A stretch of DNA of 64,000 bases from Planctomycetota bacterium (GCA_038060895.1 JBBTCT010000036.1:39168-103167); one strand, 5' to 3'. Shown: positions 1 to 17,519, numbered from the stretch's first letter. A program made the numbers and translations. Notes: a model not told the origin generated them from the letters alone.

Positions 1-1007
1 AATTCCGGCCGAAGCGCAAACCTCAGTTTTCCTACGACATCGTCGCAGACCGGATCGAGGGAGGCCCGGGCTCCCTGGCTTCCAAGGGCAAGCCCGTCGT
101 GATCAACTTCTGGGCGCCCTGGTGCGCCGGTTGCGTCGAGGAACTCCCGGAACTGGCGAGAATCGCTTCCGCGAACGCCGGTGAATTCCAGTTCGTCGGC
201 GTCAGCGTCGAAACCGGAAAGAAGGAAGATGTCCTGAAGGCCATCGCGGATTTCGGGCTGAAATATCCCCAGTTCTACGCGAACGAAGCTCTTCTCCGGA
301 GTTTCTTCGGGGACGCGGGAGACGCTGCCCTGCCTTCGACTTTCGTGCTGGATGCGCAGGGAAAACTCCGCCGTGTCTTCCGCAGAGCGCTGGGTTCCGG
401 TGAACTGGACGGGGTTCTCGACTCGTTGAAGCAGGAAGGAACACGTAAGGCGCTCTATTTCCGCCTCGCGGGCGAGAAGGTCGACGCCGGCAGGCCGGAT
501 GAAGCGATTCCCTATCTCGACAAGGCCCTGGAGATTTCACCCGACGACGCGGAAGCGTGGTTCCACAAAGGCGGCTGCCTGTTCCAGACCGGCAAGGTCG
601 AAGAGAGCGTGGTGGCTCTTCAGAAAGCGATCCAGTACGACCCCAGGCATTCGAAGGCGCTCTACAATCTCGGGGTTGCCATGGTCCGGCAGAAGCGGAC
701 GCGGGAAGGGATCGACCTTTACGAGCAGGCGCTGAAGCTTGAGGGGGAGAATGCCGGGATGCTGATCGCGCTGTCGGTGGCAGCGGCGGAGCTTGAGTTG
801 TGGCCGAAATCGAACGATGCGGCGGACCGCGCACTGAAGTCGAATGCGGAGTACGCACCCGCGTGGCTGCAGAAGGGGAAGCTGCTGATCGTGAACAAGG
901 ACTACAAGGCTGCGCGGGAGCACCTGAACAAGGCGCTGGCTTTAGACTCCGGCCTGGCGGAGGCGCGTCAGTACCTGTTCGAACTGGACCGGATGGGCGC
1001 GAAGTAG
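1..1007 (+). CDS. 5'-truncated C-terminal part (TlpA-like thioredoxin + TPR) of an FG-GAP/ASPIC-UnbV-thioredoxin-TPR paralog
   Basis: Frame is open from the window start (RPKRKPQFSYD...KPVVINFWAPWCAGC...LPSTFVLDAQG, then TPRs). Colinear with the C-termini of the three downstream paralogs. Confidence 0.85.
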   Translation, partial: FRPKRKPQFSYDIVADRIEGGPGSLASKGKPVVINFWAPWCAGCVEELPELARIASANAGEFQFVGVSVETGKKEDVLKAIADFGLKYPQFYANEALLRSFFGDAGDAALPSTFVLDAQGKLRRVFRRALGSGELDGVLDSLKQEGTRKALYFRLAGEKVDAGRPDEAIPYLDKALEISPDDAEAWFHKGGCLFQTGKVEESVVALQKAIQYDPRHSKALYNLGVAMVRQKRTREGIDLYEQALKLEGENAGMLIALSVAAAELELWPKSNDAADRALKSNAEYAPAWLQKGKLLIVNKDYKAAREHLNKALALDSGLAEARQYLFELDRMGAK

Positions 1008-1098
1008 ACTACGGGTCGGCGGCGGGAGAATTCCCCCGGCGAATCCGGTTTCCCGGTCGTCTAAAGCGGATGGTCGCTTCAGTGAGGAGCAGGTATCG

Positions 1099-1734
1099 AT
1101 GAAACCGATGTCGGCGGTCGGGCTGGCTTTGTCGGTGGTGGCTTGCGTGGCGATGGGATGGGCCTCTTCGAAGCTGTCCGCGCTGAGCGGCTCGATCCGG
1201 GCGCTGGACACGCGCGTGGCAGCACTGGAGGGCGGGGGAGGGGGGGAGGACCCGGGTCCGGCCAACGACGATTCCGGGCGATTGCGTGACGAGATGGTGA
1301 GGCTCCAGTCCGAACTGGCGGACATCCGGGAGTTCCAGAAGAAGCTGGGAGTTTCCGGGACCGGGGACGGCCCCACGCTGGCGGATCTCCGGAAAGCGCT
1401 CGAGGAGATCCTCCAGGAAAAGGAGCTGGCCGCGCGACGCTCGAGAGCGGAGAAGGATCTGGTGAAGGCCAGGGCCCACAATGCGGGGCTCCACAAGACG
1501 ATCGTGGCGCAGATGAAGATGTCGGAGGCGCAGGCGGCCCATCTGAAGGACATCCTGGATGCTCAGGTGGAAGCCTACCGGTCCCTGCTCATTGAACGGG
1601 CCCAGGATTTCGAGATGAAGGCCCGGGAACTGAACAAGGCGACCTCCGGGAAGATCAAGGAGATCCTGGTCGAGGAGCAGAAGCCGTACTGGGATCCTTC
1701 CAAGGTAAAGTGGTTCATCGACACACCCGACTAA
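1099..1734 (+). CDS. Hypothetical membrane-anchored coiled-coil protein
   Basis: GAGGAG RBS. N-terminal hydrophobic helix, coiled coil, and C-terminal MSEAQ...ILVEEQ helical motifs. Confidence 0.7.
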   Translation: MKPMSAVGLALSVVACVAMGWASSKLSALSGSIRALDTRVAALEGGGGGEDPGPANDDSGRLRDEMVRLQSELADIREFQKKLGVSGTGDGPTLADLRKALEEILQEKELAARRSRAEKDLVKARAHNAGLHKTIVAQMKMSEAQAAHLKDILDAQVEAYRSLLIERAQDFEMKARELNKATSGKIKEILVEEQKPYWDPSKVKWFIDTPD

Positions 1735-1746
1735 ACCCGTTCGGAG

Positions 1747-2445
1747 ATGACAGACATGGAGGACCGTGCGGGAGTCGGAGCCGTGGCGCTTGCGATCCTG
1801 GGGACGCTGGGCGCTGCGATTCTGCTGGTGCAGGCAGGCCGGGCGTCCGCCAGCGTGGATGCGCTGAATGCGCGGCTGGACAAGGTGCGCCCGGCCGGGC
1901 GCGCTGGAAAGGACGGGGCGATCCAGAAGGCCGAGGCCGCGCGTCTCGACGGCGAGCTCGCCGCCCTCAAGGCCGCTGCAGAGCAGGCTCGCCGGGCCGC
2001 TGAGGGCGGCGTGAGGATCACCGGCCCGGACGGAAAGCCGATGATTGCCGGCGCCGACCTGAAGGCCCTTGCGGCGAAGACGCATGCGGACTGGGAAGCG
2101 GAAACCCATCGCGCCTGGGCGGATCGGCAGGTGTCGAAGATGAAATCAGTCGCGGCCATGACGACCAAGAACCGTGCTGAGCAGCTCAAATTGTCCGCCG
2201 AGCAGCAGGAGAAGATGGCAGCCGCACTTAACGACATCCTGGTGCAGTGCCAGCCGATACTGCGGCTTGAATCCGTGCCGGACGACATTCCCGCCTGGAT
2301 TGACGGGCAACTCGCGGGCTTTGAGCAGAAGATGCGGGAGGTCATGACACCCGAGCAGTACAAGGCCTACTCGCGCCATCCCGTGAACATCATCGGCGGG
2401 CTTCTGTACGACGCGAAGATCCCGCGCCACGACCAGGGCGAGTAA
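1747..2445 (+). CDS. Hypothetical membrane-anchored coiled-coil protein with Spy/CpxP-like LSAEQ/MTPEQ motifs
   Basis: GGAG RBS. TM helix, LKLSAEQQEK and VMTPEQYKAY motifs. Same layout as the upstream gene. Confidence 0.7.
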   Translation: MTDMEDRAGVGAVALAILGTLGAAILLVQAGRASASVDALNARLDKVRPAGRAGKDGAIQKAEAARLDGELAALKAAAEQARRAAEGGVRITGPDGKPMIAGADLKALAAKTHADWEAETHRAWADRQVSKMKSVAAMTTKNRAEQLKLSAEQQEKMAAALNDILVQCQPILRLESVPDDIPAWIDGQLAGFEQKMREVMTPEQYKAYSRHPVNIIGGLLYDAKIPRHDQGE

Positions 2446-2463
2446 GGGCTCGCGTTCGGCGCG

Positions 2464-2967
2464 TCAGCGCGACAGGGTCCGCGTCATGCTGCGCCAGCTC
2501 TCCCATTCCTTGTTCGCGGTGTTGCCCCACTCCTTGGCCTTCTGCCAGTGGGCGTCCGTCACCAGCACGCTGTTGATCTGCCACATCAGGAACACGTTCG
2601 GGATCTGGCTGCTGGCCTCAACGCTGGCCTCCAGGCGGGGAAGCGCCTCCCGCTCCGTGGCAGTCACCTTTTCGTCGGCTTTCGACTTATTGATGTGCTC
2701 CTTGACAGCGGCGAGAAGCGCCGTGAATCCGACGTTGATCTGGTTCAGGGCCTCCACATTCTTCTTGTCCGTGAATTCCTTCTCGTGCTTCTTCCATTCG
2801 GCCTGCAAGTCGGAGTATGCCTTCTCAAGTTCGATGCCCTTCACCGAAAGCTTACCTTCCTTCCCCGGCTCATCACCTACGGATCCGGACATGGAGTACA
2901 TGCCCACGACGGCGCCGAAGGCGAGCAGGCCAAGGCCGAGGATGACGACCAGCGCCTTGATGTTCAT
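2464..2967 (-). CDS. Hypothetical protein with N-terminal signal/TM anchor
   Basis: ATG at 2967 (MNIKALVVILGLGLLAFG). TACAAT lies 8 nt upstream. Lys/Glu-rich helical body. Confidence 0.7.
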   Translation of the reverse strand: MNIKALVVILGLGLLAFGAVVGMYSMSGSVGDEPGKEGKLSVKGIELEKAYSDLQAEWKKHEKEFTDKKNVEALNQINVGFTALLAAVKEHINKSKADEKVTATEREALPRLEASVEASSQIPNVFLMWQINSVLVTDAHWQKAKEWGNTANKEWESWRSMTRTLSR

Positions 2968-3098
2968 GGCCGGGCATTGTAAGCGCGAGTCGCGAGGACG
3001 CAAGGCGGCAGTGGCGCGATTACGAGGGGCGTTGTCCGGCCGCGCACCCACGGCTATCATGACGTCTTCTCGGGGACGGACCTTACCGGAGTGATCTC

Positions 3099-6000
3099 GT
3101 GGCGGACGGCGGGTCGAACGGCCGGCGCTTCCTGGCGTTCGGGGGAGGCCTGTTGATCCTGGTGCTGGGCGCGATCGCGCTCGTGGCGCTTCTCAAATCG
3201 CCGCCCGCCGGGCCCGGGGAATTCGTCCCCCGCCCGGCCTCGTTCATCTCGGACATCGTGAAGTCCGAGGACGCCTACGACATCGTCAACCCGACCATCA
3301 AGGGGACATTCGTCAAGGGGCTGAAGGGGCGCGACTGGGGGATGGTGGCCTCGTCGCTGGCGCCGGACTTCAAGGCGCGGTGGCCGAAACCCGGCGACGG
3401 CAGGGAACTGCCCGATGGGGCCATCGCGCTTCGCGAGTACCGCGAGACGCAGTGGCCCGACGCGGACGCGGCGGCGTTCGTCCAGATCCTCAAGGAGCAC
3501 GTCGACGGCTGGTCAGCGGTGGAACGCACGACCTGGCGTCCCTTCGAATTCCTCATGGACATCGGCGGCCTCGCGGCCTTCGCGAGCATCCATTTCCAGG
3601 TCGCCGGCGTGCGCCCGGACGGGACGCGCGCGGACCTCGCGGGGCTCGTGCAGGCGCAATTCGTGTCGAAGGACGGGAAGGCGTGGCAGGTGAGGAGGCT
3701 GGAATGGGTGGAGGGGTGCCGCGGCGAAGCGCGGCACAAGCCATGGCGGGATGTGACGGAGGCGTGCGGGCTGACGTTCAACGAAGGCGAGGAAGTTCGC
3801 AAGCTGCGCGCGCAGCTCATCGACGACCGCGGCGTCGTGACGCTGGGTGGGCTGTCGGTCTGCGACTGGAATGGGGACGGGTTCTACGACGTGCTCGCGA
3901 CGCGCGCGGGGACCGAGTCGGCGCTTTTCATGAACGACGGAAAGGGCGGTTTCGTGCGTGCGGCGTCGCCGATGAAAGAGGGGCGCGAAGCGGGATTCAG
4001 TCCGCTCCTCCTCGATCTCGACGGCGACGGGAAGGATGAACTGCTGACCGGGCAAGTGCTTTCCTACGAGAACCAGACGGCGTACATCGGCGTCTACGTG
4101 CAGGAGAACGGAGGGTGGACGCTGCGCCCGAGGGCGCTGGCGGCGCCGCTGGCGAAGGGCACGCGCGCCGTGCTGGTGCAGGGCGTCGAGCCGATGGACG
4201 CGGACGGCAATGGGCTCATAGACCTGTTCTTCTGCAACTATTCCAGCACGGATTCACTCGGCAGGGACTTCAACCGCGTCGCGGCCTACGACGGGATGGA
4301 CAACTGGCTTTTCATGAATTACGGGAAGCTGGATCTTCGCGAAGAATCCGACGGGCGCGGGATCGCCGGGACGCAGTACACGTACGTCGCCAAGGCGTGG
4401 GATTTCGACGCGGACGGCGATTCCGACATCTTCGAGGGGAACGACTTCGGCCCGAACCACCTCTGGCTGAACGACGGGAAGGCGAATTTCGCGGAAGCGA
4501 AGGACCATATTTTCGGCGCCGACTCGAACTACACGATGGGCGTGTCCATGGCGGACTTCGACAACACGGGCGACTGGACGATGTACATCTCGAACATGTA
4601 CTCGCACGCCGGGAACCGCATCGTGCCGCTGTCGAAGGGGATCAGCCCGGAAATGAAGCGGCTCGGGATGATCCTCGCGCAGGGGAACCAGATGTACGAG
4701 CGCAGGGGCGGCGTGTGGAGCGAGACTGCGGTCGCTCGCGGCACGAACTGGGCGGACTGGGCGTGGTCGTGCCTCTTCTTCGACGCGGACAACGACACCG
4801 ACAAAGATCTCTTTGTCGCGAACGGTTTCACGACGAACACGGACCCGAAGGCCCCGGACTACTGAACGCACTTCTGGCGCCAGGTGGTCGCCGACGCGAA
4901 GGCCGTGGAGACAGGGGGGCGGACGTCGCTCACCAACGCGAACATCCAGCGCGACTTCCGCGGGTCTTGGAGCGGCTACGAACGCGACTGCCTCTTCCAG
5001 AATCCGGACGGACTGGCGCCGCGGTTCGTGAACTGCGGGTACCTTTACGGGCTGGACTTCGACGACGACGGGCGGTCGGCCTGCCCGGTGGACATCGACG
5101 GCGACGGGGACCTCGACATGGTGTGCCTGTCGCTTCAGGGCCTGCGTCTCATGGAAAACACGTCCCCGAAACGGCACTTTGCGCGCATCCGGCTTTCGGC
5201 CGGGCCGTCGCACGTTCTTCCGCTCAACGCACTCGTGAGGGTGACGGCCGGCGGAGTGACCCAGCAGGACACGCTGCGCATCACCGACGGATTCCTCTCC
5301 CAGGTCCCCGCCGACCTGCATTTCGGGCTCGGCAGCGCGGACAAGATCGACGCAGTCGAGATCACCTGGCCCGGAAGCGGTACGCCGGCGCGATTTTCGG
5401 CTCTTCCCGCAAACCGCCTGCTCGAATTCGTGCCCGGGGAAGCGGCCCCTCGCGTTTCGGAGCTTCGGGCCTGGCCGGCCGAAACGCGGCCGCGGCTGGC
5501 GCCCGAGTTTTCGTTCGCGATTGCGGCGAAGGGGCTCGATGGGAGCGAAGGGCCGCTGGCGGAGAAGGGAAAGCCGGCAGTTGTGAACTTCTGGTCGCCG
5601 ACGTGCGCGCCGTGCAAGGAGGAGCTTCCGCTTCTCGCGGCTGCGGCGGACCGGCTCGCGGGACAGGTCCGGTTCGCCGGCGTGAGCACGGAGATCGCCG
5701 ACGTCGCTTCGGTGACTCAAGCGGCCGCCGCGTTCAAGCTCAATTACCCGCAGTTTCTCGCGAACGACGCCCTCGTGCGCAGTTTCTTCGGCGCCGGCGG
5801 CGCGGTCATTACGCCCTCCACGTTCGTCTTCGACGCAGGCGGCCGCCTGCGGCGTGTCTTCCAGCGGACGATCGCGGCAGGCGAGCTGGAAGCCCTGCTC
5901 TCGACCTTGAGGGACGAGGGACTCTCGGCCTACGACCTCGAGCGCCGTGGGATGCGCTTCATGGACGTCGAGAACTACGAGCAGGCCGCCGCGTTCCTCA

Positions 6001-6473
6001 AGCAGGCCTCCGACCTGCGCGGTGACGACGCCATGCTTCTCTATAATCTCGGCGTCGCGTTACAGCGCCTGGGCCGGAAGGGGGAGTCGCACGCCGCGTT
6101 CCTGCGTTCCTTCGAGCTCGATCCCGGCTATGCGCCGGTCCATCACAATCTTGCGGAAGCCCTCCGGCTGGATTCCCGTTTCGAGGAGGCCGCGGTCCAT
6201 TACCTCGAGGCGATCCGGATTCGCGGCGATGAGTACGAGACCTGCTGGGGGCTCGGCGATTGCTGGTCGCGCCTCGGTCGGTCCCAGGAGGCGCTTCTTG
6301 CCTTCGACCGAGCGATCGCGATGGATTCCCGGCAGACCCGGGCGCTGAAGTCAAAGGCGCTGGAGCTGTCCAAGCTGGGAAAGCCGGGCGAAGCGGCGGC
6401 CATCCTGAGAAAGGTGCTGAGCCTGGCGCCGGGCGACAAGGAAGCCGCCCAGTGGCTGGAGCAGCTCCGGTGA
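3099..6473 (+). CDS. Putative selenoprotein: TM anchor + FG-GAP/VCBS propeller + in-frame UGA (4863-4865) + ASPIC/UnbV + TlpA thioredoxin (CAPC) + TPR, ~1124 aa
   Basis: ORFs 3099-4865 and 4884-6473 are in the same frame, separated only by TGA. DxDGDGxxD repeats, SNMYSHAGNR, SWSGYERD, LHFGLG and NFWSPTCAPC motifs. Hairpin at 4876-4892. Confidence 0.8.
4863..4893 (+). promoter_or_regulatory. In-frame UGA plus putative bacterial SECIS element
   Basis: TGA, 10 nt, then GGCGCC-AGGT-GGTCGCC hairpin. Confidence 0.7.
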
Positions 6474-9400
6474 GCGCGCATCCGGCTGTGGGCAGAACAG
6501 GAATGCTGGCCGCGGGAATCGCCGCGTTTCTGGTCACGGTCGGGATCGTCATCGTGATGAAGAGCGGGCAGGGCGCGGCCGCGGCGGCCCCCCTGGCGCG
6601 GCCCTCGAAGTACATAGTGGATGTGGAGCTCTCCGAGAGGACGTACGAAGTCGCAAACGCGTCTCTGAAGGGACGATTCGTGAAGGGACTGAAGGAGATG
6701 GACTGGGAGAAGGCGCGGGCGGGTTTGGCGACGGGGTTCCGGGGCAGGTTTCCGGCGCCGCTCGAGGGACGGGAAGTTGCGGACGGCTGGGTGGGTGTGC
6801 GCGATTACGCCGCAGCAGGCCTTCCCGAACTCGACGCTGACGCCTTTCTCGGCGTGTTGCGCGACCACCTCGCCGGATGGGCTGTCGTGGAGCGCACGAC
6901 CTGGCGGCCGTTCGAGTTCCTGCTCGACCCGGGACTCAAGTCCGCCTACATCAGCCTGCATTTCCAGGTCGCCGGACAGAAACCGGACGGCCTTCGTGCG
7001 GACCTGAGCGGCATCCTGAGCGGCCGGATCGCAAGCGCCGACGGGAAGGACTGGCACATCGAGCGCCTCGAGTGGGTGGAGGGAACGCGCCTCGATTCCT
7101 CCCGGCCGCCCTGGGTGGACATCACGGACGAAACCGGGCTTCACTTCAATGAGTCCGAATCCAACCTCAAGCTCCGCCGCTCGATGATCGACGACCGCGG
7201 GCTGACGACCTCGGGGTCGCTGGTCGTTTCCGACTGGAACCGCGACGGTTTTCCCGACGTGCTGGCCAGCGTTCAGACAGGCATCCTCGCCCTTTTCCTC
7301 AACGATGGCCGGGGCGGCTTCGTCCGCGGAAAGGCGCCGGAAGTTGCTCCCGACCACGTGGCCACCGCCTACGTGGCGCTGGACCTGGATGGGGACGGCA
7401 CGGACGAGCTTGTGAGCGGCCTGGTCCAGGTCGATCCCGGAGGGAAGGCGCGATTCCCGGTCTACATCCGCCGCGGAGAAGGCTGGGAAACGCGCTGGAT
7501 CCGCTTCGACGTCCCGGTCGGGCTGCACGCCGTGAGCGTCCAGGGAATCGTCCCGGATGACTTCGACCGTGACGGGGACCTCGATCTGTTCTTCTGCTGC
7601 TACTCGAATGGCGACTCGAAACACGTGGAATTCAACCGGGTCGTCGCCTATGACGGCGCGGACAACTACCTGTTCGTCAACCAGGGCGGATTCGCGTTCA
7701 CGGAGGAGTCCGACACACGAGGCCTCACGGGGACGCAGTACACCTACGTGGCAAAGTGGTGGGACTTCGATTTCGACGGCGATCTAGACCTGTTCGAGGG
7801 GAACGACTTCGGCCCGAACCACCTGTGGCTGAACGACGGCAAGGGGCGGTTTACGGACGCGAAGACGCACATTTTCGACGCGGACACGAACTACACGATG
7901 GGCGTCACGATCGCGGACTGGGAAAACGACGGGACCTGGGGAATGTATATCTCGAACATGTACAGCCATGCCGGGAATCGCGTCTTCCTGCTCGCCGACA
8001 ACATGGGGCCCGAGATGCGCCGGCTGGGGCTGCTGCTCGCGCAGGGGAACCAGTTTTACGAATGCGACCCGAAGAGCCGCGAGTGGCGGGAGACGGCGGT
8101 TTCGCGCCGCGTGAACTGGGCCGACTGGGCATGGGGCACTTTCTTCTTCGACGCCGACAACGATGGCGACCGAGACCTCTGGGTCACCAACGGCTTCACC
8201 ACGAACACCGACCCGAACGCCCCCGACTACTGAACTCACTTCTGGCGGCAGGTCGCCGCCGATGCCCGCGCCCTGGAAACCCGGCGTCGTCCGGAGCAGG
8301 ATGCCAGGGCCGACCAGAAATTCCGCGGCTCCTGGAGCGGCTACGAGCGGGATTTCCTCTTCTATAACACCGACGGCCCGTCCGCCACCCTCCCCAACGC
8401 CGCCTACCTCTGCGGCCTCGATTTTGACGACGACGGACGCGCCGCGGCGCCCGTCGATATCGACGGGGACGGGGACCTCGACCTCGTCGTCCTCTCGCTT
8501 CAGGGCCTGCGCGTCGTCGAAAACACCGCTCCCGGCCGGCGCTTTCTTCGGCTCCGACTCGAAGGCGCGAAAGGACAGGCCGACGCGCTCGGCGCGTTGG
8601 TAAAGGTCGTGGCGGGTGGAGTAACGCAGCAGGACTACGCGCGCCTGACCGACGGATTCGCGACGCAGGTGCCGTTCGACCTGCACTTCGGGCTGGGGGA
8701 AGCGAAGCTCGCCGACCGGGTGGTGGTGACGTGGCCCGGGGGGGAGACCCAGACGGCGCTCGACGTGCCGGCAGACCGGCTGGTCACGATCCGCCGCGGA
8801 AAGGACGGATTCGAAGCCCGCGAACTCCCGGGCTGGCCGGCCGGGTCGCGGCACGGGGTGCGGCCCGCGTTTTCGTTCGTCGAGGCCGCGACGAAGCTGG
8901 AAGGTGGTGCGGGACCGCTGGCGGCGAAGGGGCGTCCGGCGGTGTTCAATTTCTGGTCGCCTTCCTGCGCTCCCTGCAAGGAAGAGTTGCCGCGCCTGGC
9001 CGCGCTTGCCGCGCAGTACCGCGACGTCGCGCAGTTCGCAGGCGTCTGCGTCGAAACCACGGACCTCGAGGCCGTTCGCGCCGCAGCGAAGTGTTTCGAA
9101 ATCCCTTACCCGCTCTTCCTCGCCGATGAAGCCCTGCTCAAGTCCTTCTTCGGTACCGGAGGCGACGTGCCTCTCCCTTCCACTTTCGTGTTCGACGGCA
9201 ACGGCGACCTCCGAAGGATCTTTCGCCGCGAGGTCGGGCAGGAAGAGCTGGGCCTGCTTCTCGCCTCCTTCAGCGACGAAGGAACCGGCGCAGCCGAGCT
9301 GGACCGGCGCGGCGCCCGGGCTCACCACCTGGGGAACGATCCCGAGGCCCTCGAGTGGCTGAAGAAAGCGCTGGCCGTGGATCCCGACTCCATGCTCGCG

Positions 9401-9856
9401 ACATACCACATGGGGCTCGTGCTTCTGGGACTGGGGCGCCCCGAAGAGGGGATCGCCCACCTGCGTCGCGCCGCCGAACTGGACCCGGAGTACTGGAACG
9501 CTTGGTACAACCTCGGCGCGGCACTTCACAACAGGCGCGACTTCAAGGGTGCCGCCGAAGCCTACCGGAACGCACACAAACTCCGCCCGACCGACATCGT
9601 CATCCTCCTGAGTTTCGGCAATTCGGCGGGAAAGTCCGGCCAGGCCGCGCTCGCCTTCGAGTGCTTCGACCGCGCCGTAGCTCTTCAGCCCGGGAACGCG
9701 ACGGCGTGGGGGATGAAGGGCGAGTACCATTTCGTCGTCGGGCAGATTCCCGCGGCGAAGGCGTGTTTTGCGAAAGCGCTCGCGATTGATCCGAATGAGC
9801 CGAATTCGCGTGCGTACGGCAAAGAGATCGAGAATATTGAAAGGGGAAGAAAGTGA
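6470..9856 (+). CDS. Putative selenoprotein paralog 2 (FG-GAP + UGA 8231-8233 + ASPIC/UnbV + thioredoxin + TPR), ~1128 aa
   Basis: GTG start overlaps the upstream stop (GTGA). Frame continues after TGA with THFWRQVAAD...SWSGYERD. No ATG/GTG/TTG for 121 codons after the TGA. NFWSPSCAPC motif. Confidence 0.8.
8231..8261 (+). promoter_or_regulatory. In-frame UGA plus putative SECIS
   Basis: TGA, 10 nt, then GGCGGC-AGGTC-GCCGCC perfect hairpin. Confidence 0.75.
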
Positions 9857-12800
9857 CCGTGAAACCGCCGGTGGCGCCCGCGAAGCGCGTGCAGATTCCG
9901 ATGATGATTCCCGCCTGTTTTCTTGCGCTGGCGGCGATCGTCGCGCTGATGATCTACCTGAAGAACCTACCGAAGTCGACGGGGCCCTTCCTGACGCGCC
10001 CGGAGACTTTCGTGACGGACTTCGCGAAGTCGGAAGGAGTGCACGACCTTGCCACGAGCGGCGGAACCGACAAGAAGACCGGCGCCGCCGTCAAGGGCGT
10101 GAAGGGGACGTTCCTGAAAGGGATGCGCGAGCGGGACTGGGGGATGATGGCCTCCGGAATGGCGCCGGGTTTCCGGGCCCGCTTCCCGCAAATTGCCGAT
10201 GGAAAAGAAGTTCCCGACGGCCTGCTCCGGATCCGGCAATACGAGGGCTCGGAGCTCAAGCGCGAGCTGGACAAGGACGCGTTCACGTCGGTGATGAAGG
10301 AGCAGGTCGGCCCGTGGGCGGCAGTGGAGCGCGCCGTGTGGCGCTCGTTCGAGTTCCTGCTCGACCCGGGTGAAAAGAGTGCGTTCCTCAGTGCCCATTT
10401 CCAGCTTGCCGGGATTCTCCCGGACGGCGGGCGCGTCGATTTCACGGGAGTCATCCAGGCCCGGGTGATCCGCGACGGCGACGTCTGGAAAGTGAAGCAG
10501 TTCGGGCTCGTCGAGGGGTGGCGGGCGGAATCGAGCTTCATGCCGTTCAACGACATCACCGATCAGGTCGGGCTGGCGTTCAACGAGTCCGAGGAGCGCC
10601 GCAAGGTCGCGCAGGGGCTGATCAACGACCGGGGCGTCGTCACGAGCGGGGGATTGACCGTCGCGGATTTCAATGACGACGGATTTCCCGACATCCTCGC
10701 CGCCTCGATCCACAACGACGCGATCCTCTTCGTCAACGACGGACAGGGAGGCTTCATCCGCGGACCCGTCGTCACCAATCCGGAGGAATGCGGCCCCTGC
10801 TGGCTGTCCGTCGATCTCGACGGCGACGGGGTCGAAGAGCTGGTCAGCTCCCAGGTCCTCTCGTACGAGGGCAACAAGGCGAAAGGCGCGATCTATCGCC
10901 GCAAGGGCGACGCCTGGGTGCTCGTTCCGGACGCGCTGGTTTTCCCGATTGGGCAGGGGGAGCGCGACCTTTCGATCCAGGGGATCGTTCCGCACGACGT
11001 CGACGGGAACGGACTCCTCGACCTGTTCTTCTGCGTCTACAGCAACCGCAACTCGAAGGGGCCGAACTACAACCGCGTCGTCGCCTACGACGGCGCCGAC
11101 AACCATCTCTTCATGAACAAGGGCCACCTCGCATTCTCCGAGGAGTCCGACGCCCGCGGCATCACGGGGACGCAGTACACCTACGTCGCAAAATTCTGGG
11201 ACTTCGATTTCGACGGGGATACGGACCTCTTCGAAGGGAATGACTACGGCCCGAATCACCTGTGGCTGAACGACGGGAAGGGAAAGTTCACCGACGCGAA
11301 GAGCCACATCTTCAACGCCGATTCGAACTACACGATGGGCGTCACGATTGCCGACTGGGACAACACGGGCGCCTGGTCGATGTACATCTCCAACATGTAC
11401 AGCCATGCGGGGAACCGGATCCTTCCTCTCATGACCGGAGTGAAGGACGACACGAAGCGGCTCGGGCTGGTTCTCGCCCAGGGAAACCAGATGTACGAGT
11501 ACGTCCCGGCAGGACGGCAGTGGACCGAGACCGGCGTCAAGCGGGGCGTGAACTGGGCGGACTGGGCCTGGGCCTGCCTCTTCTGGGATCCCGACAACGA
11601 CGGCGACCGCGACCTCTTCGTCGCGGACGGGTACACGACGAATTCCGACCCGAAGGCGCCCGATTACTGAACGTTTTTCTGGCGGCAGGTCGCCGCCGAC
11701 GCGTCCGCACTGGAGAAGAAGGAGCAGGCATCCCTCGCCCGCAGCGAGGAGGACGCGCGTTTTCGCGGCTCCTGGAGCGGCTACGAGCGCGATTTTCAGT
11801 TCCACAACGCCGACGGGCCGTGCCCGGTTTTCTTCAATACGGCGTACCTGTGCGGCCTCGACTTCGACGACGACGGTCGCGCGGCCGCTCCTGTCGATAT
11901 CGACGGGGACGGTGACCTCGACCTCGTCCTGCTCTCGCTGCAGGGCCTGCGCGTCATGGAAAACCGCATGCCGCGAAGGCGCTTCGCGCGCCTCCGCCTC
12001 ACCGCGACCACGACTGAGCCCCTCGCCCTCGGCGCCATCGTGTCTCTCACCGCCGGCGGCGTTACGCAGCAGGACTACGTCCGCATCACCGACGGGTTCA
12101 TGACACAGGTCCCGCGCGAACTTCATTTCGGCATCGGCAACGCCGATAAAATCGACCGCATCACCGTTCGCTGGCCGGGCGGGAACGCGAAGGTCTATTC
12201 GGACATCCCCGCCGACCGCCTGGTGGAAATCCGGGAGGACGAAGCGGCGCCGAAGGTGTCCGAGCTTCCGGCCTGGCCCGAGGCCACGCGCCCGAAGGCG
12301 CGCCCGTCATTCTCGTTCGAGACGGCCCTCGATCGGCTGGCGGGCGGAAAGGCGCCGCTCGCCACGACAGGAAAGCCCGCGGTCGTGAACTTCTGGTCCC
12401 CGACGTGCGCACCGTGCAAGGAGGAACTGCCGCGCCTGGCCGCGCTGGCGAGAGAATTCGGCGACCGCGTGCAGTTCGCGGGGGTCTCCGCCGAGTCGAA
12501 GGATCTTGAATCCGTTAGGAAGTCGGTCGCCGACTTCGGCGTCCCCTACCCGCAATTCCTGGCTAACGAGGCCTTCCTCAAGAGCTTCTTCGGCACCGGG
12601 GACGCCATTCTCCCCTCGACCTTTGTTTTCGACGGCGCCGGCCGCCTGCGGCAGTCCTTCCACCGCGCGATCTCACAGCCCGAGCTTGCTGCGCTCCTGG
12701 AATCCTTCCGCGAGGAATCCGTCGCCGCCGCCGATCTCGTCGCGCGAGGCTCCGCCCTCATCCAGAGCGGGGACTTCGAAGCGGCCGCCCGCTTCCTGCA

Positions 12801-13347
12801 TGACGCCGTCAAGGCCGACCCGGAGTCTTCCGCGGCACTTAATCAACTGGGCACGGCGCTGAGCGGGGTTGCGGGGTCCATTGAATCGGGAAAAACGCCC
12901 GCGGCCGACGCCGCCGAAGCAGAACGTCGCCGGCAGCAGGCCATTCCGAAGTGGGAGGAAGCCATTGTCTGGCTTCAGCGGGCCGTCGCTCTCGACGCCG
13001 ACTTCTCCGAGGCGCAGTACAACCTCGGCGTGGCTCTCCAGCGCACAGGCCGCTACGAGGCCGCGATCAAGGCACTGGAGGAGGCGCTTCGCGTCGTCCC
13101 GAATTCCTACGACTCCCTCTATTCTCTCGGGATGTCGGCGGGGGCGGCCAGGCAGAACGCCCTCGCGGGGGACGCCTTCGAGCGGGCGATCGTGCTCGCG
13201 CCCCGCCGCCCCGAGGCGTGGGTTGGAAAAGGGCTGTGGCTGCGCCAGATAGGGAAGATGGAGGAGGCGAAGAGCGCGCTTCAGAAGGCGGTTGAGCTCG
13301 ACCCCTCGAATGAGGAGGCCCGTGGCATCCTCCAGGGGATGCCATAG
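9853..13347 (+). CDS. Putative selenoprotein paralog 3 (FG-GAP + UGA 11668-11670 + ASPIC/UnbV + thioredoxin + TPR), ~1164 aa
   Basis: GTGA overlap start. In-frame continuation TFFWRQVAAD. First start codon is 95 codons after the TGA. NFWSPTCAPC motif and TPRs. Confidence 0.8.
11668..11698 (+). promoter_or_regulatory. In-frame UGA plus putative SECIS
   Basis: TGA, 10 nt, then GGCGGC-AGGTC-GCCGCC, identical to the paralog 2 hairpin. Confidence 0.75.
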
Positions 13348-13474: not shown

Positions 13475-16177
13475 ATGAGTCCAATCCCACCCGCGAGAGG
13501 CGCCTTGAGAGCGCGGATTTCCCCCGCTTTCGCGGCCGCCCTGGCCGCAGCGTTGCTTCTGCCCGTCCTTGCCGGGTGCAAGCGCGGAGGGGGATCGTCC
13601 GGCTCCGGGTCTGGCAGTTACGCCCTGACGTCGTTCCCCGGCGCACCTGTCTCCGACGGTGACGTGGCATCGGACGGCAAGGGGCTGAGCCCGCCCGGGA
13701 TGAGCGTGATTGCGGGCTCCGTGCGCTGTACGCCAAATGGCGACCGGGGCACCCTGATGGTGACGTACGGAGTGCTGTCCGGGGACCCGCCGGTCACGAA
13801 CCTCATAGGCCAGTACTTTGACGGGGAAGCCTGGACTCCGCCGGTGACGCTGGGCGCCATCGATGCGAGCAGCGCGCCGGGCTCGATCACGTACTCGTCC
13901 GTGGCCCACGCGTGGGTCAACACCGGCGACCACCTGGCCGAGACGGCCAGCGACCGGGACGGCGACTGCATCATTTTCTGGCGATGCAACGACGCGGACG
14001 ACGACGGTATCCTCACCCCGGACGGCGCGAACGCCAACCTGTTCGCAACCTATTTCAACTCGCGCCAGAGCGGCGACATCGCCAGCCGGTACGGCTTTCA
14101 GGAATTCGCCAGCCGTCTGAGCGTGGAAGACGAGGCGGGGGAAGACGTCACTTCGTTCGGATTCGCGACCGACGGGCTGTGCGGCGAAGCGCGTTGGGAC
14201 AGCGGCGAGAACTCTTACCGTTACGGCGAGCAGACGACGGGGATCGTCGTCTTCTGGAACCAGCGCGAAAACAACGACGGTTTGGCGGGGTTCGACGACC
14301 GCTCGCTCTGCGCGTGCCATATCGCGCTCGATTTCGCGCTGGACGCAGCCCTGCCGCTCGAATCCGGGGCGGGGATCGGCGGCGCCACTCGGCTCCCGAT
14401 CGACGCCATGGGCGCCTCGGACGTGGGATCGTCGAGCGAGGAGACCCAGGTGGACTCGGGCTTCCTGTCCTACAACAACCTCCTCGTGTTCCGCGTCGCG
14501 GCCGACAACCTGACGGAAGCGGACGATGAGGCGGAGCACGTCTTCGACGGGGGGCCCACGTCCTACAACGGCCCGTCCGCACTCGGGGAAGACTCTTCTC
14601 TCGAGTACGTCTCGTTCGAACTCGCCCTCGGTACTTCCACGGCCGGCGCCGTTCTTCACGCGACCGTTCCCGTCTCCAGTTCCTCGGACGCGCTTCGCAA
14701 CGATGCCGACTTCCTGACCCCGGCGGACGGGGCCTCCGTTTTCGGCTCAACGGCGTTCGGCACGGACGAGGGGCTCGCCTGCTTCGTGCTCTTCTCGGCG
14801 GAATCCGACAGCGACACGAACGACTCCAAGGTCGACGCCGGTGACTCAGGCGGCGTTGCGATCTCCGAGATCGACCCTGTGACCGGCGGTCTCCTCTCCC
14901 ACTCGTTGCTCAGCGCGGCGGATCCGGTCATCTCCGACTTCATCAACTCGGGACAGGTCAGTGCGCGCATCAGCCGGAACGGCGACTACGTCATGCTCGC
15001 CTGGCTGCAGGCCGCCGCGGCCGGTCCAACCCCGGATGCTGCGCTCAGGGTGGCCCAGTACCTGACGACCCGTCCGGATGAAGACGGGCTCTTCGCCGTG
15101 CCCGCCATCTCCGCTTCGCTCAGCGCCCCCGTCACGGTGAGCGTGGATGTGGACGGCGTCGATGTCGCGAGCTTCGCCTGGCAGGAGGGACTGTCCTACA
15201 TCTGCGGAGCCCAGTCGGACCCGGATGTCATGAACGTCGCATTCGCTCACGCGGACGGCGTGGTGGACCGTCTGTTTTCCGGAAGAGTCGTCGCGAACTT
15301 CTCGGCGCCCCCTGTACCCTCGGCGCTTTCAGTTCTCCTTGCTGCGGGCGAGGCGACAATCTGGTCTCTCGCCCCCGCGCTCAACGACGCCGGCCACCAA
15401 TACCGCATCATCGACAGCGGGGAAGGCGGCAACGTCTTCGCCGTCTACAACATGGACGTGGACACGGGCGCCGGAACCGATTTCCGCGTGTTCGCCCAGC
15501 GCACCGGCCTGTCCTCCGGATTCGGCCCCATCGACAGCAACGTGGACTTCCGCGAGGCCGGACTGCAGCCCTTCACCCTGCTGGGTACCCCCGCCGGGAA
15601 CGACATCGGCCTTTTCGATCCCTCCACGGGCGAAGACAGCCCGGACCGCCCGCACGGCTACACCCGCCTCCACGTCTTCTTCCGCGAGCAGAAGACCTCC
15701 ACGGCGTCCGGCGCCGGGTTCGCCCTCCGGACCCGCGCGTTCGACACCTCAGACTCCGGATTGGCCTTCGGCGACTCCTTTACCCCGGGCGCCGGGTCCG
15801 CGTACGACCAGCCGTTCGACCTCGACCTGCCGTTCATCGACCCCTCCGTGTCCCTCGATGCCGAAGTCGTCGGCTTCACCTCGGACGGCGACGACGTGGG
15901 CGTCTACTTCACCGAGACCCTCCACATCTGGTACCAGGAATTCCACCCCGACGGCATGGCCCTCGGCTGGATCAATGACCTCGGCGTCTCCACACCGCTC
16001 CTGGTCGACGACGACGTCGCCGCCGAATCCGAATCGGACAAGCCCATCGAAACCTTCGAACTGTTCGTCACCCGCACCTGCACCTGCGCGACCCTCCACG
16101 GCGCCACCGTCTTCTTCACAAAGACCGCGGACGACCTCACCCTGGACAAGCGCCTTCGCGTGCGTATCCGCGAGTAG
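13475..16177 (+). CDS. Large acidic secreted lipoprotein of unknown function (possible beta-propeller)
   Basis: Lipobox VLAG-C and Gly/Ser linker. Asp-rich, with recurring beta-strand motifs (IIFWR, VVFWNQ, MLAWLQ, HVFFRE). Confidence 0.75.
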   Translation: MSPIPPARGALRARISPAFAAALAAALLLPVLAGCKRGGGSSGSGSGSYALTSFPGAPVSDGDVASDGKGLSPPGMSVIAGSVRCTPNGDRGTLMVTYGVLSGDPPVTNLIGQYFDGEAWTPPVTLGAIDASSAPGSITYSSVAHAWVNTGDHLAETASDRDGDCIIFWRCNDADDDGILTPDGANANLFATYFNSRQSGDIASRYGFQEFASRLSVEDEAGEDVTSFGFATDGLCGEARWDSGENSYRYGEQTTGIVVFWNQRENNDGLAGFDDRSLCACHIALDFALDAALPLESGAGIGGATRLPIDAMGASDVGSSSEETQVDSGFLSYNNLLVFRVAADNLTEADDEAEHVFDGGPTSYNGPSALGEDSSLEYVSFELALGTSTAGAVLHATVPVSSSSDALRNDADFLTPADGASVFGSTAFGTDEGLACFVLFSAESDSDTNDSKVDAGDSGGVAISEIDPVTGGLLSHSLLSAADPVISDFINSGQVSARISRNGDYVMLAWLQAAAAGPTPDAALRVAQYLTTRPDEDGLFAVPAISASLSAPVTVSVDVDGVDVASFAWQEGLSYICGAQSDPDVMNVAFAHADGVVDRLFSGRVVANFSAPPVPSALSVLLAAGEATIWSLAPALNDAGHQYRIIDSGEGGNVFAVYNMDVDTGAGTDFRVFAQRTGLSSGFGPIDSNVDFREAGLQPFTLLGTPAGNDIGLFDPSTGEDSPDRPHGYTRLHVFFREQKTSTASGAGFALRTRAFDTSDSGLAFGDSFTPGAGSAYDQPFDLDLPFIDPSVSLDAEVVGFTSDGDDVGVYFTETLHIWYQEFHPDGMALGWINDLGVSTPLLVDDDVAAESESDKPIETFELFVTRTCTCATLHGATVFFTKTADDLTLDKRLRVRIRE

Positions 16178-16187
16178 ACGCGCCTCC

Positions 16188-17519
16188 ATGAAGAAATTCT
16201 GGGTCGAAACCTTCGGTTGCCAGATGAACAAGCTCGACAGCGAGCAGTTCTCGGGCGAGCTCATGCTTCACGGATACTCGCAGGCGACAGGACAGGACGA
16301 CGCCGACGTCATCCTCTTCAATACGTGCAGCGTCCGCGAACACGCCGAGCAGCGGGTTTACTCGAGGGCGGGCATCCTGAAGCGCCGCAAGGCGACCGAC
16401 CCCGGCCTGGTCATCGGCATCCTGGGCTGCATGGCGCAGCAGGAGCGCGAGAAGATCCTCGACCGGCTGCCGCACGTCGACCTCGTCGCGGGCCCGGACC
16501 AGTACAAGAACCTGCCGGCGCTGATTGACGAAGCGCGGGAGTCCGGCGAAGCGATCCTGGCGACGCGCCACACGGCGTTCATTCCGAAATTCGACCGGCT
16601 CGCGGCGCCCCGCGAAAACCCGTGGCAGGCGTACATCCTTGCGATGAAGGGCTGCGACGAGATGTGCTCCTACTGCGTGGTGCCGCGCACGAGGGGGAGA
16701 GAGGTCTCGAAGCCGATTCCGGAGATCGTCGAGGAGGCGCACGTGCTCGCCGGGCAGGGGGTCGTCGAAATCACGCTGCTCGGGCAGAACATCACGGCGT
16801 ACGGCGAGAAGGAAGGCAAGGAGCTGGCTGACCTGGTGGAAGCTGTGGCCGCCGTCCCGGGAATCCGGCGCGTTCGTTTCGTCACGAGCCATCCGCACCA
16901 CGCGACGCGCCGGCTGTTCCGGACGATGCGCGACCTCCCCAACGTGATGCCGCAGATTCACATGCCCGCGCAGAGCGGGAGCGATCGGATTCTGGCGCTG
17001 ATGAAGCGCACTTACACGAACGCGGAGTACCTGGACATCATTGCGATGGCGCGCGAGGAGTGCCCGGAGATCGAACTCGCGAGCGACTTCATCGTGGGAT
17101 TCCCGACCGAGACGGAGGACGATTTCCAGGCGACGCTGAAACTCGCGGAACAGGTCCGCTTCGGCTACGCGTTCATCTTCCAGTACAGCCCGCGTCCGGG
17201 CACGACGGGGATGCGCGACCTCGTTGACGACGTCCCGGCGGAAGTGAAGCTGCGCCGCAACCACGAACTGCTCGCGCTTCAGGAGCGCATCCAGCTCGAG
17301 AAGAACGTCGCCCGCGTCGGCGCGACCGTCGAGGTGCTCGTCGAGGGGCGCAGCGAGCGCAACAAGGCGAAGTGGACGGGCCGCGGCCCCGACAACCGGA
17401 TTGTCGTGTTCGAGGGGGACGGCGAGCTTGCGGGCAAATTCGTGGAGACAAAGATCGCCCGCGCCACGGCTCTCACGCTCTACGGCGACCCGCTGCGGCA
17501 GCCCGCGGCCGTCGGGTAG
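16188..17519 (+). CDS. miaB: tRNA-2-methylthio-N6-dimethylallyladenosine synthase
   Basis: ETFGCQMN, NTCSVRE, radical SAM motif CDEMCSYC, DFIVGFPTET, YSPRPGT and C-terminal TRAM. True start is ATG 16188. Confidence 0.92.
   Translation: MKKFWVETFGCQMNKLDSEQFSGELMLHGYSQATGQDDADVILFNTCSVREHAEQRVYSRAGILKRRKATDPGLVIGILGCMAQQEREKILDRLPHVDLVAGPDQYKNLPALIDEARESGEAILATRHTAFIPKFDRLAAPRENPWQAYILAMKGCDEMCSYCVVPRTRGREVSKPIPEIVEEAHVLAGQGVVEITLLGQNITAYGEKEGKELADLVEAVAAVPGIRRVRFVTSHPHHATRRLFRTMRDLPNVMPQIHMPAQSGSDRILALMKRTYTNAEYLDIIAMAREECPEIELASDFIVGFPTETEDDFQATLKLAEQVRFGYAFIFQYSPRPGTTGMRDLVDDVPAEVKLRRNHELLALQERIQLEKNVARVGATVEVLVEGRSERNKAKWTGRGPDNRIVVFEGDGELAGKFVETKIARATALTLYGDPLRQPAAVG

Follow-up and report, generated by a model that had tools for sequence, protein, structure and literature searches.

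Predicted selenoproteins with an in-frame UGA in a CRTAC1-like propeller, encoded by a tandem gene array in a planctomycete genome

A 64,000-nucleotide stretch of DNA from a Planctomycetota bacterium (GCA_038060895.1 JBBTCT010000036.1:39168-103167), hereafter the window, whose positions serve as coordinates throughout, encodes three very large paralogous proteins, each interrupted at the same codon by a single in-frame TGA. We predict, from the genomic evidence presented below, that this codon is very probably translated as selenocysteine (Sec). The mode of Sec insertion appears ordinary, and it is the protein family itself that appears to be unrecognised. Each gene would give rise to one membrane-anchored, probably periplasmic protein of ~1120-1165 amino acids; that such a protein combines Sec insertion with a periplasmic redox relay is the explanation that we favour by a modest margin over the possible alternatives taken together. 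The source genome consists of 47 contigs and is 86.5% complete, and the DNA considered here has a GC content of 66%.

Three tandem genes with a shared in-frame TGA

A reading of this DNA made from the sequence alone had described a tandem array of genes with an in-frame TGA at one shared codon. Translation with TGA read as Sec (U), together with inspection of the raw DNA, confirms that description and yields three head-to-tail open frames on the plus strand, with one internal TGA apiece. Paralog 1 (3099..6473, ~1124 amino acids, with its Pfam domains recognised in the TGA=U translation) starts at GTG 3099 and has its true stop, a TGA, at 6471-6473; its predicted Sec codon is codon 589 (4863..4865), in the context DPKAPDY-U-THFWRQVVAD. 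Paralog 2 (6470..9856, ~1117-1128 amino acids) has its true stop, again TGA, at 9854-9856 and its predicted Sec codon at 8231..8233 (DPNAPDY-U-THFWRQVAAD). The open frame of this gene reaches back to 6260 (6260-9856), and its start is most likely GTG 6470 or ATG 6503 rather than 6260. Paralog 3 (9853..13347, 1164 amino acids) runs from GTG 9853 to TAG 13345-13347 and has its predicted Sec codon, U606, at 11668..11670 (DPKAPDY-U-TFFWRQVAAD). All three paralogs share the context DP(K/N)APDY-TGA-T(H/F)FWRQV(V/A)AD, followed downstream by FRGSWSGYERD and then by DIDGDGDLD. The stop codon of one gene and the start codon of the next overlap as GTGA, at 6470-6473 between paralogs 1 and 2 and at 9853-9856 between paralogs 2 and 3, which suggests that the paralogs belong to one operon, with translational coupling within it.

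Protein conservation runs across the TGA in all three frames and in the alignments of homologues, as the sequence-only reading had it. The first in-frame ATG, GTG or TTG past the TGA is found at 4884, 8597 and 11956 in paralogs 1, 2 and 3, that is, 6, 121 and 95 codons further on; for paralogs 2 and 3, recomputation gave the same start-free lengths as those noted earlier.

Selenocysteine machinery and genetic code

Bacterial Sec is encoded by UGA plus an adjacent 3' Sec insertion sequence (SECIS) element, which is read by SelB. All four components of the machinery that the sequence-only reading had proposed to look for were found in the source genome. Matches over the curated cut-offs were obtained for selA (541 bits), for selB (310.7 bits, or 344.3 bits with its C-terminal piece) and for the Sec-type selD (364 bits). 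The tRNA-Sec scored 71.7 bits, also over the cut-off, and ARAGORN called it as tRNA-SeC with the anticodon tca. The selD gene (L010, G000:C2:48628-49548) itself contains an in-frame TGA (SCAG-U-ASK) with a hairpin ~11 nucleotides (nt) after it; at least one classical selenoprotein of this genome, SelD, shares a similar SECIS layout.

The source genome also encodes the release factor RF2, and TGA is its commonest stop codon, ending 664 of 1522 long open reading frames (ORFs). Because RF2 is present and TGA is the commonest stop, the organism uses the standard code with no reassigned TGA. Genome-wide reassignment of this codon, which was considered as a candidate, is thereby ruled out, in agreement with the earlier exclusion of a code change.

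A SECIS-type hairpin in the codons of a conserved peptide

A 17-nt hairpin begins 10 nt past each UGA on the plus strand, with a UGA-to-loop distance of 16 nt. The hairpin of paralog 1 (4876..4892) has 6 bp with one bulged U, the loop AGGU and a folding energy of -7.9 kcal/mol, and those of paralog 2 (8244..8260) and paralog 3 (11681..11697) each have a 6-bp stem, the loop AGGUC and a folding energy of -11.6 kcal/mol. The rules for bacterial SECIS elements set out in a May 2026 review (PMC13188914) ask for a loop of 3-9 nt, a stem of 4-16 bp, a UGA-to-loop distance of 16-37 nt, a minimum free energy of -7.5 kcal/mol or lower and a G within the first two loop positions; all three hairpins satisfy every one of these published rules.

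The hairpin lies within the codons of the peptide W-R-Q-V-(A/V)-A, which dictates three of the six stem pairs, whereas the other pairs hang on synonymous sites. These synonymous sites behave like RNA. In 20 close homologues, 97.5% of the stem cells pair. Pair 21-29 is GC in nine of these sequences, AU in seven, GU in three and unpaired in one, being G-C where the partner codon is Ala GCC and A-U or G-U where it is Val GUC. The Arg codon of the stem is CGG in 12, CGA in seven and CGC in one of the 20, as opposed to a genome usage of 0.49 for CGC and 0.07 for CGA. In a more distant subfamily, the helix register has moved by one base. Pairing extends to 92.4% of the cells in 22 distant homologues from genomes, with changes on both sides in three pairs, and to 96.5% in 62 homologues from metagenomes, with changes on both sides in four of the six pairs (25 cells); in each set, none of 500 shuffles matched the covariation score. 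When the register was slid in the metagenome set, only 14-66% of the cells paired. The minimum free energy of the full 63 nt past the UGA is no better than that of shuffled sequences (z-scores of -1.30, -0.61 and +0.22 in the three paralogs); in DNA as GC-rich as this, the informative signal is confined to the local 17-nt hairpin and its covariation.

The hairpin accompanies the TGA. At least five of the six pairs are kept at 105 of 111 distinct TGA sites as opposed to one of eight non-TGA homologues, and the six TGA forms with fewer than five pairs have hairpins in other registers. A strict hairpin test was passed by five of the seven family members, compared with 16 of the 659 remaining TGA stops of the source genome and, for random TGAs, 743 of 20000. 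The lone exception among the non-TGA homologues, L146 from a metagenome, has Arg (CGC) at the Sec column, five of the six pairs and the downstream CxxC motif described below; it looks as if Sec had been lost recently in this sequence.

Distribution of the family

The source genome encodes seven members of the family, all with TGA at the shared column, and up to 10 copies are present in a relative. Among 41 related genomes, 17 have matches, and 66 of these 76 matches hold one TGA; of the 10 TGA-less matches, four stop short of the site. The named records among the relatives are metagenome-assembled genomes of Planctomycetota or Planctomycetia. A stop is found at the aligned column in 26 of 30 loci from relatives, and the other four have no alignment across the site. 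Together with the seven copies of the source genome and the 66 matches, this agreement at one column goes far past what chance would produce. Homologues with TAA or TAG at this position, which the sequence-only reading had listed as evidence to the contrary, were not found, every stop at the site being TGA; an extra TAG is present away from the site in three distant matches from the related genomes.

In an even set of 401 Planctomycetota genomes, the family (match at E <= 1e-12) is represented in 109, at several copies per genome, and among the matches listed (90 more exist) one TGA is found in 127 of 150 and none in 23 of 150. The family is also present in six of 201 Myxococcota genomes (loci L134-L141), where all 10 matches carry the TGA. 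One Myxococcota genome has four copies with up to 50% identity to the window protein, which hints at cross-phylum transfer. When metagenomes were scanned with a Cys form as seed, 63 distinct TGA sites and one true non-TGA homologue came back, and the family recurs in marine metagenomes. The UGA and the hairpin stay at one column down to ~25-30% identity and across two phyla.

A search of 1.84 billion cluster representatives yielded 2176 matching proteins at E <= 1e-10. In the best 150 of these 2176, 37 proteins end right before the site (...PD[YWF]) and 46 start just past it; another 66 cover the site, and one is unclear. Gene callers do split these genes at the TGA, as had been predicted.

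The selA gene was detected in 290 of the 401 sampled Planctomycetota genomes, so that Sec decoding would seem to be the norm among Planctomycetota. It is present in 102 of the 109 that carry the family. The seven family genomes without selA are G045, G177, G257, G258, G328, G358 and G359, of which G358 and G359 have selB, and G177, G257 and G328 contain only Cys or other non-TGA forms. Because selA is common anyway, this link between the family and Sec-decoding genomes is a test of limited power.

Domain architecture and structure model

All three paralogs match the Pfam families FG-GAP_3, UnbV_ASPIC and AhpC-TSA/Redoxin/Thioredoxin as well as many TPR families; the scores of PF13517 (81.6-90.2 bits) and PF07593 (57.9-62.1 bits) all exceed the cut-offs. 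An AlphaFold2 model of paralog 3, built from a 43-sequence alignment, is confident (predicted local distance difference test score, pLDDT, 93.0; predicted template modelling score, pTM, 0.90). The domains are given here by their residues in paralog 3 and, in brackets, by their positions on the plus strand. A hydrophobic helix at residues 18-37 (9904..9963), seen in the model and in the sequence, is a likely membrane anchor. It is followed by an alpha+beta domain at residues 57-234 (10021..10554), delimited by the secondary structure of the model, which has no Pfam match and in the full model gives the impression of an NTF2-like fold; folded by itself without an alignment, this domain reached a pLDDT of only 45.6, which is unusable. 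The FG-GAP beta-propeller, at about residues 260-705 (10630..11967; Pfam, model and Foldseek), bears the Sec codon. Next comes an ASPIC/UnbV beta-sandwich at about residues 710-803 (11980..12261), defined by PF07593 at residues 725-791 and by the strands of the model, and then a TlpA/ResA-like thioredoxin-fold domain at about residues 815-955 (12295..12717; Pfam AhpC-TSA/Redoxin/Thioredoxin and Foldseek). The latter contains a C-A-P-C motif, C852-C855 (12406..12417), at the start of helix 853-869, and this motif recurs in homologues as W-x3-C-x2-C. The protein ends in a TPR domain at about residues 959-1162 (12727..13338; Pfam, model and Foldseek).

The top Foldseek match of the model is murine CRTAC1 (9etn_A; E 1.3e-21, template modelling (TM) score 0.71 by target length, 16% identity), so that the CRTAC1-like propeller proposed from the sequence is borne out; CRTAC1 9etn is also the only propeller matched by sequence in the PDB. 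The thioredoxin-fold domain superimposes on ResA (1su9_B) with a TM-score of 0.81 by target length and a root-mean-square deviation of 2.1. Against the NCBIfam models, this domain scores 34.5-40.1 bits for ResA (cut-off 170) and 30 bits for TlpA (cut-off 230), with StoA and DsbE also far below their cut-offs; it belongs to the TlpA/ResA fold class but is not an equivalog of any of these proteins. In the model, helix 606-621 inside the propeller begins with U606. A helix start is the typical place of a reactive Cys or Sec in thiol oxidoreductases.

The proposed redox relay

No conserved partner Cys was found in the homologue alignment within 150 residues on each side of Sec. The W-x3-C-x2-C motif further downstream is present in 39 of 45 assessable TGA forms and two of three assessable Cys forms, as opposed to nine of 78 forms with another residue at the column; among long C-terminal fragments of TGA forms, 30 of 38 have it. 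The 13 closest non-Sec homologues, which have Q, D, E, N or S at the column, include a single one that keeps CxxC, the Ser form P0005. The source genome possesses a DsbD_TM gene, encoding a DsbD/CcdA-type transporter. The position of Sec at a helix start, its co-occurrence with CxxC, the lack of a nearby partner Cys and the presence of this transporter together suggest a periplasmic selenol enzyme that is recycled by its own TlpA-like domain.

In the mechanism that we propose, the internal UGA would be decoded as Sec by SelB and tRNA-Sec, directed by the SECIS hairpin with its 6-bp stem and AGGU(C/G) loop, located 10 nt past the UGA and written in the codons of the conserved W-R-Q-V-(A/V)-A. 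The product would comprise, in this order, the anchor helix, the alpha+beta domain, the CRTAC1-like FG-GAP propeller, the ASPIC/UnbV domain, the TlpA/ResA-like CxxC domain and the TPR domain. Sec would serve as the redox-active catalytic residue of an extracytoplasmic oxidoreductase and, once oxidised, would be re-reduced by the CxxC domain of the same protein, which in turn would take its electrons from the DsbD/CcdA-type membrane transporter, while the TPR part may hold a partner or substrate protein. The selenoprotein reading as such, already put forward in the sequence-only reading, is strongly supported by the Sec machinery, the covarying hairpin and the conserved UGA. For the relay between Sec and the CxxC domain, our preference is slight.

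Several observations weigh against this picture. With regard to Sec insertion, a search of Rfam with the window segment 3000-13400 (E <= 10) returned no SECIS family, only three unrelated matches at chance level. The expectation that TGA would be confined to genomes with Sec machinery is in line with the 102 family genomes with selA, with the two that have selB and with the three selA-less genomes that have non-TGA forms exclusively; out of line with it is G258, a 90% complete genome with a TGA form (G258:C36:100554-101420), where searches turned up no selA and no selB. The G258 case could stem from a pseudogene or an assembly gap. With regard to the relay, CxxC is missing in six of the 45 assessable TGA forms; one of them is L044 from a genome of the same genus (G007:C530), where CxxC is gone from the thioredoxin-like region and both TGA and hairpin are retained. 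When the association of Sec with CxxC was corrected for relatedness, counting independent pairs on supported branches only, five such pairs were available and the test was not significant (median p 0.25); CxxC changed in the same way as Sec in 2.7 pairs, in the opposite way in 0.1 and showed no difference in 2.2, so that the trend has the right sign. Given that there are too few independent pairs, the link stands as a raw association only. The 55 of 56 obtained for this link in the metagenome set is biased, as the patterns used to fetch these sequences contained the CxxC motif. Finally, Sec is replaced mostly by Q, D, E, S, N and A and more rarely by Cys, an unusual pattern if Sec is catalytic. 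Docking the propeller of P0139, a Cys form, with its thioredoxin-fold domain gave a score of 0.00 and counts neither way.

Residues at the Sec column and alternative explanations

The residues found at the Sec column bear directly on its role. Across the site, the non-TGA residues of 43 database homologues are Q6, D6, S4, E4, A3, C3, H2, N1 and W1, and those of 66 site-spanning representatives are Q13, S8, D7, E7, C7, N6, A5, G4, L2, W1 and V1, with five gaps; distant CRTAC1-like proteins have I, V or L. Cys codons (TGC) were read at the site in L128 and L129, the latter from G177, and the protein sequence of P0139 combines Cys with the full architecture of FG-GAP, UnbV_ASPIC, AhpC-TSA and TPR domains. 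The Sec/Cys pairs anticipated from the sequence do exist, both as TGC codons and as seven Cys among the 66 representatives, but they are a minority relative to Q, D, E, S, N and A. Next to U606, D604 and W610 are nearly invariant. Within 150 residues on each side, a single column distinguishes the Sec forms: this is S642 (11776-11778), the latter of the two Ser in GSW-S-GYERD, where 94% of Sec forms have Ser as opposed to only 29% of the others, most Cys forms having Asn.

Since Cys is a minority at the column, which is unusual for a catalytic Sec, we retain as a less probable but serious alternative that UGA is decoded as Sec and the selenol acts as a ligand of a metal or cofactor, or has some other non-redox role, at D604-x-U-x3-W610. 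Other subfamilies would then place O or N ligands at the column, and CxxC would keep the selenol reduced or perform another task. Most residues in the two tallies above could be ligands (Q, D, E, S, C and N in both, together with the two His), D604 and W610 are nearly invariant, FG-GAP propellers bear DxDxDG calcium-type motifs that are visible in all three paralogs, and six of the 45 assessable TGA forms are devoid of CxxC. There is a precedent in the molybdenum and tungsten enzymes with a bis(pyranopterin guanine dinucleotide) cofactor, in which the metal ligand varies among Sec, Cys, Ser and Asp. On the other hand, the column also admits residues that are not ligands, namely A (5 of 66), G, L, V and W, the Sec forms do not specifically conserve a second soft ligand (Cys or His) within 150 residues on each side, and the helix start and the raw enrichment of the CxxC domain fit thiol or selenol redox chemistry better.

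It is improbable, in our estimate, that the UGA serves as a regulatory stop, leaky or dependent on selenium, which sets the ratio of an N-terminal product of ~590-600 amino acids to the full-length protein and for which the identity of the inserted residue matters little. The tolerance of the column for many residues in non-TGA homologues is in keeping with such a role, and bacterial Sec insertion is inefficient, so that a truncated product likely exists as well. However, a product ending at the UGA would lack part of the propeller according to the model, the co-occurrence with the CxxC domain would be left unexplained, and the UGA and hairpin are kept down to ~25-30% identity in both phyla, with as many as 10 paralogs in a genome.

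Still less probable is that near-cognate tRNAs, perhaps aided by the hairpin, insert a standard residue such as Trp, Cys or Arg at the UGA. Nothing speaks for it directly, although W, C, S, G, L and R, all one base away from TGA, occur at the column in some homologues. It is at odds with the complete Sec machinery of the source genome, with the agreement of the hairpin with the bacterial SECIS rules and with the presence of selA in 102 of 109 family genomes and of selB in two more; besides, the selA-less G177, G257 and G328 have only non-TGA forms, and the codon read in G177 (L129) is the Cys codon TGC.

The view that the TGAs are true stops, separating two genes per locus or marking decaying pseudogenes, is close to refuted: gene callers do output two proteins (37 ending before and 46 starting after the site in the best 150 of 2176), but 121 and 95 codons go by past the TGA before a start codon appears in paralogs 2 and 3, protein conservation continues over the site, homologues without the TGA have this architecture in a single protein, the full-length model folds compactly as one unit (pTM 0.90) whose propeller spans the site, and more than 100 copies with a single stop at a single column are not what pseudogenes would show.

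Comparison with known systems

The closest parallel for the proposed decoding is the coding-region SECIS of the fdhF type, from E. coli formate dehydrogenase, which shares with the paralogs an in-frame UGA directly followed by a stem-loop and the presence of selA, selB, selD and tRNA-Sec. The minimal fdhF element is an upper stem-loop of ~17 nt, whose loop contains an essential GU and which lies ~11 nt from the UGA. In the paralogs, the stem starts 10 nt past the UGA, and G-G-U occupies loop positions 2-4. The protein encoded by fdhF is unrelated to the paralogs and, unlike in the fdhF case, the hairpin here is built from the codons of WRQV[AV]A, a peptide that is conserved in non-Sec homologues too.

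With the CRTAC1/ASPIC-UnbV family, the paralogs share the combination of FG-GAP_3 and UnbV_ASPIC and the fold seen in 9etn. In contrast, CRTAC1 and most bacterial proteins annotated as members of the CRTAC1 family have no UGA, and the stretch around Sec has no sequence alignment to CRTAC1. To the CRTAC1 plan the paralogs add the N-terminal anchor, the alpha+beta domain, the thioredoxin-fold CxxC domain and the TPRs. We know of no function assigned to the CRTAC1 family.

The thioredoxin fold, the W-x3-C-x2-C motif and, as judged from the model, the position of CxxC at a helix start are shared with oxidoreductases of the TlpA/ResA type. The PilB protein of Neisseria (thioredoxin-MsrA-MsrB) has a thioredoxin-type domain fused to the enzyme that it recycles. 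By analogy, the same logic may apply here, in that a fused thioredoxin-fold domain would reduce a catalytic chalcogen residue; the partner domain would be a propeller in place of the Msr domain of PilB, and both the contact and the activity are our proposal.

Extracytoplasmic redox selenoproteins with TlpA-like folds are catalogued in PMC13188914 and are likewise predicted to function in extracytoplasmic redox reactions. Their Sec lies within the thioredoxin-fold motif (UGC or CxxU), whereas in the paralogs the thioredoxin-fold CxxC is an ordinary one and Sec is located in the propeller, ~246 residues closer to the N terminus. The three paralogs matched no NCBIfam model of the catalogued TlpA-like selenoprotein families.

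Novelty and implications

Table 1 of PMC13188914 lists 119 families or subfamilies of prokaryotic selenoproteins, and neither this table nor the available part of the text contains an entry for, or mention of, FG-GAP, UnbV_ASPIC or CRTAC1. No selenoprotein model of NCBIfam release 20 was matched by the three paralogs at E <= 1e-5. No such family was found in the literature on selenoproteins with the terms FG-GAP, ASPIC, UnbV, CRTAC1, VCBS or propeller, or on selenoproteins in Planctomycetes, and the family terms did not occur in the available portions of five selenoproteome papers (PMC12013277, PMC13326102, PMC4807772, PMC2398784, PMC9312934). The supposition that the family is new agrees with the catalogue and with the literature as far as these are available, and supplementary lists (Table S2 of BSepDB, Table S2 of deep-Sep and Table S9 of PMC4807772) might still include it. 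We consider it an evenly balanced proposition that this is an unrecognised family, perhaps among the most paralog-rich of bacterial selenoproteins, with Sec at a helix start in the propeller served by a fused TlpA-like CxxC domain.

If this is the case, the ASPIC/UnbV/CRTAC1 superfamily would gain its first enzymatic (redox) handle, and Sec would be placed in a CRTAC1-like propeller, a fold without an assigned biochemical function. Because a selenoprotein is a rarity that usually signals a catalytic redox site, a new selenoprotein family would point to new chemistry. The pattern in which Sec or Cys goes with the CxxC domain and Q, D or E goes without it offers a testable idea about the role of a part of the superfamily. 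The selenoproteomes of planctomycetes would turn out to be substantially undercounted; because annotation cuts every member in half, selenoproteome sizes, family statistics and domain architectures would all be wrong today. A curated model combined with a SECIS pattern could let annotation pipelines mend hundreds of gene calls. It would also follow that the SECIS had been recruited from the codons of an older conserved peptide, WRQVAA, and repeated gain and loss of Sec would be possible.

Neighbouring genes

The genes that flank the array, which encode a MiaB-like radical-SAM enzyme, RibD and a GAF-GGDEF protein, give no hint as to its function. A 900-amino-acid ORF at 13475-16177, which has no Pfam match, overlaps the MiaB-like gene (15339-17519) and in such GC-rich DNA may be a spurious frame. 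The segment of ~2 kb upstream of paralog 1 (1009-3098) contains overlapping ORFs at 1009-2109 (minus strand), 2486-3094 (plus strand) and 2464-3060 (minus strand), none of which matches Pfam. This segment separates paralog 1 from a fourth, upstream paralog, whose C-terminal part, with a Redoxin/AhpC-TSA thioredoxin-like domain and TPRs recognised by Pfam, occupies positions 3..1007 on the plus strand. The match to this paralog (G000:C36:36824-39730) has one TGA just beyond the edge of the window, again followed by a hairpin.

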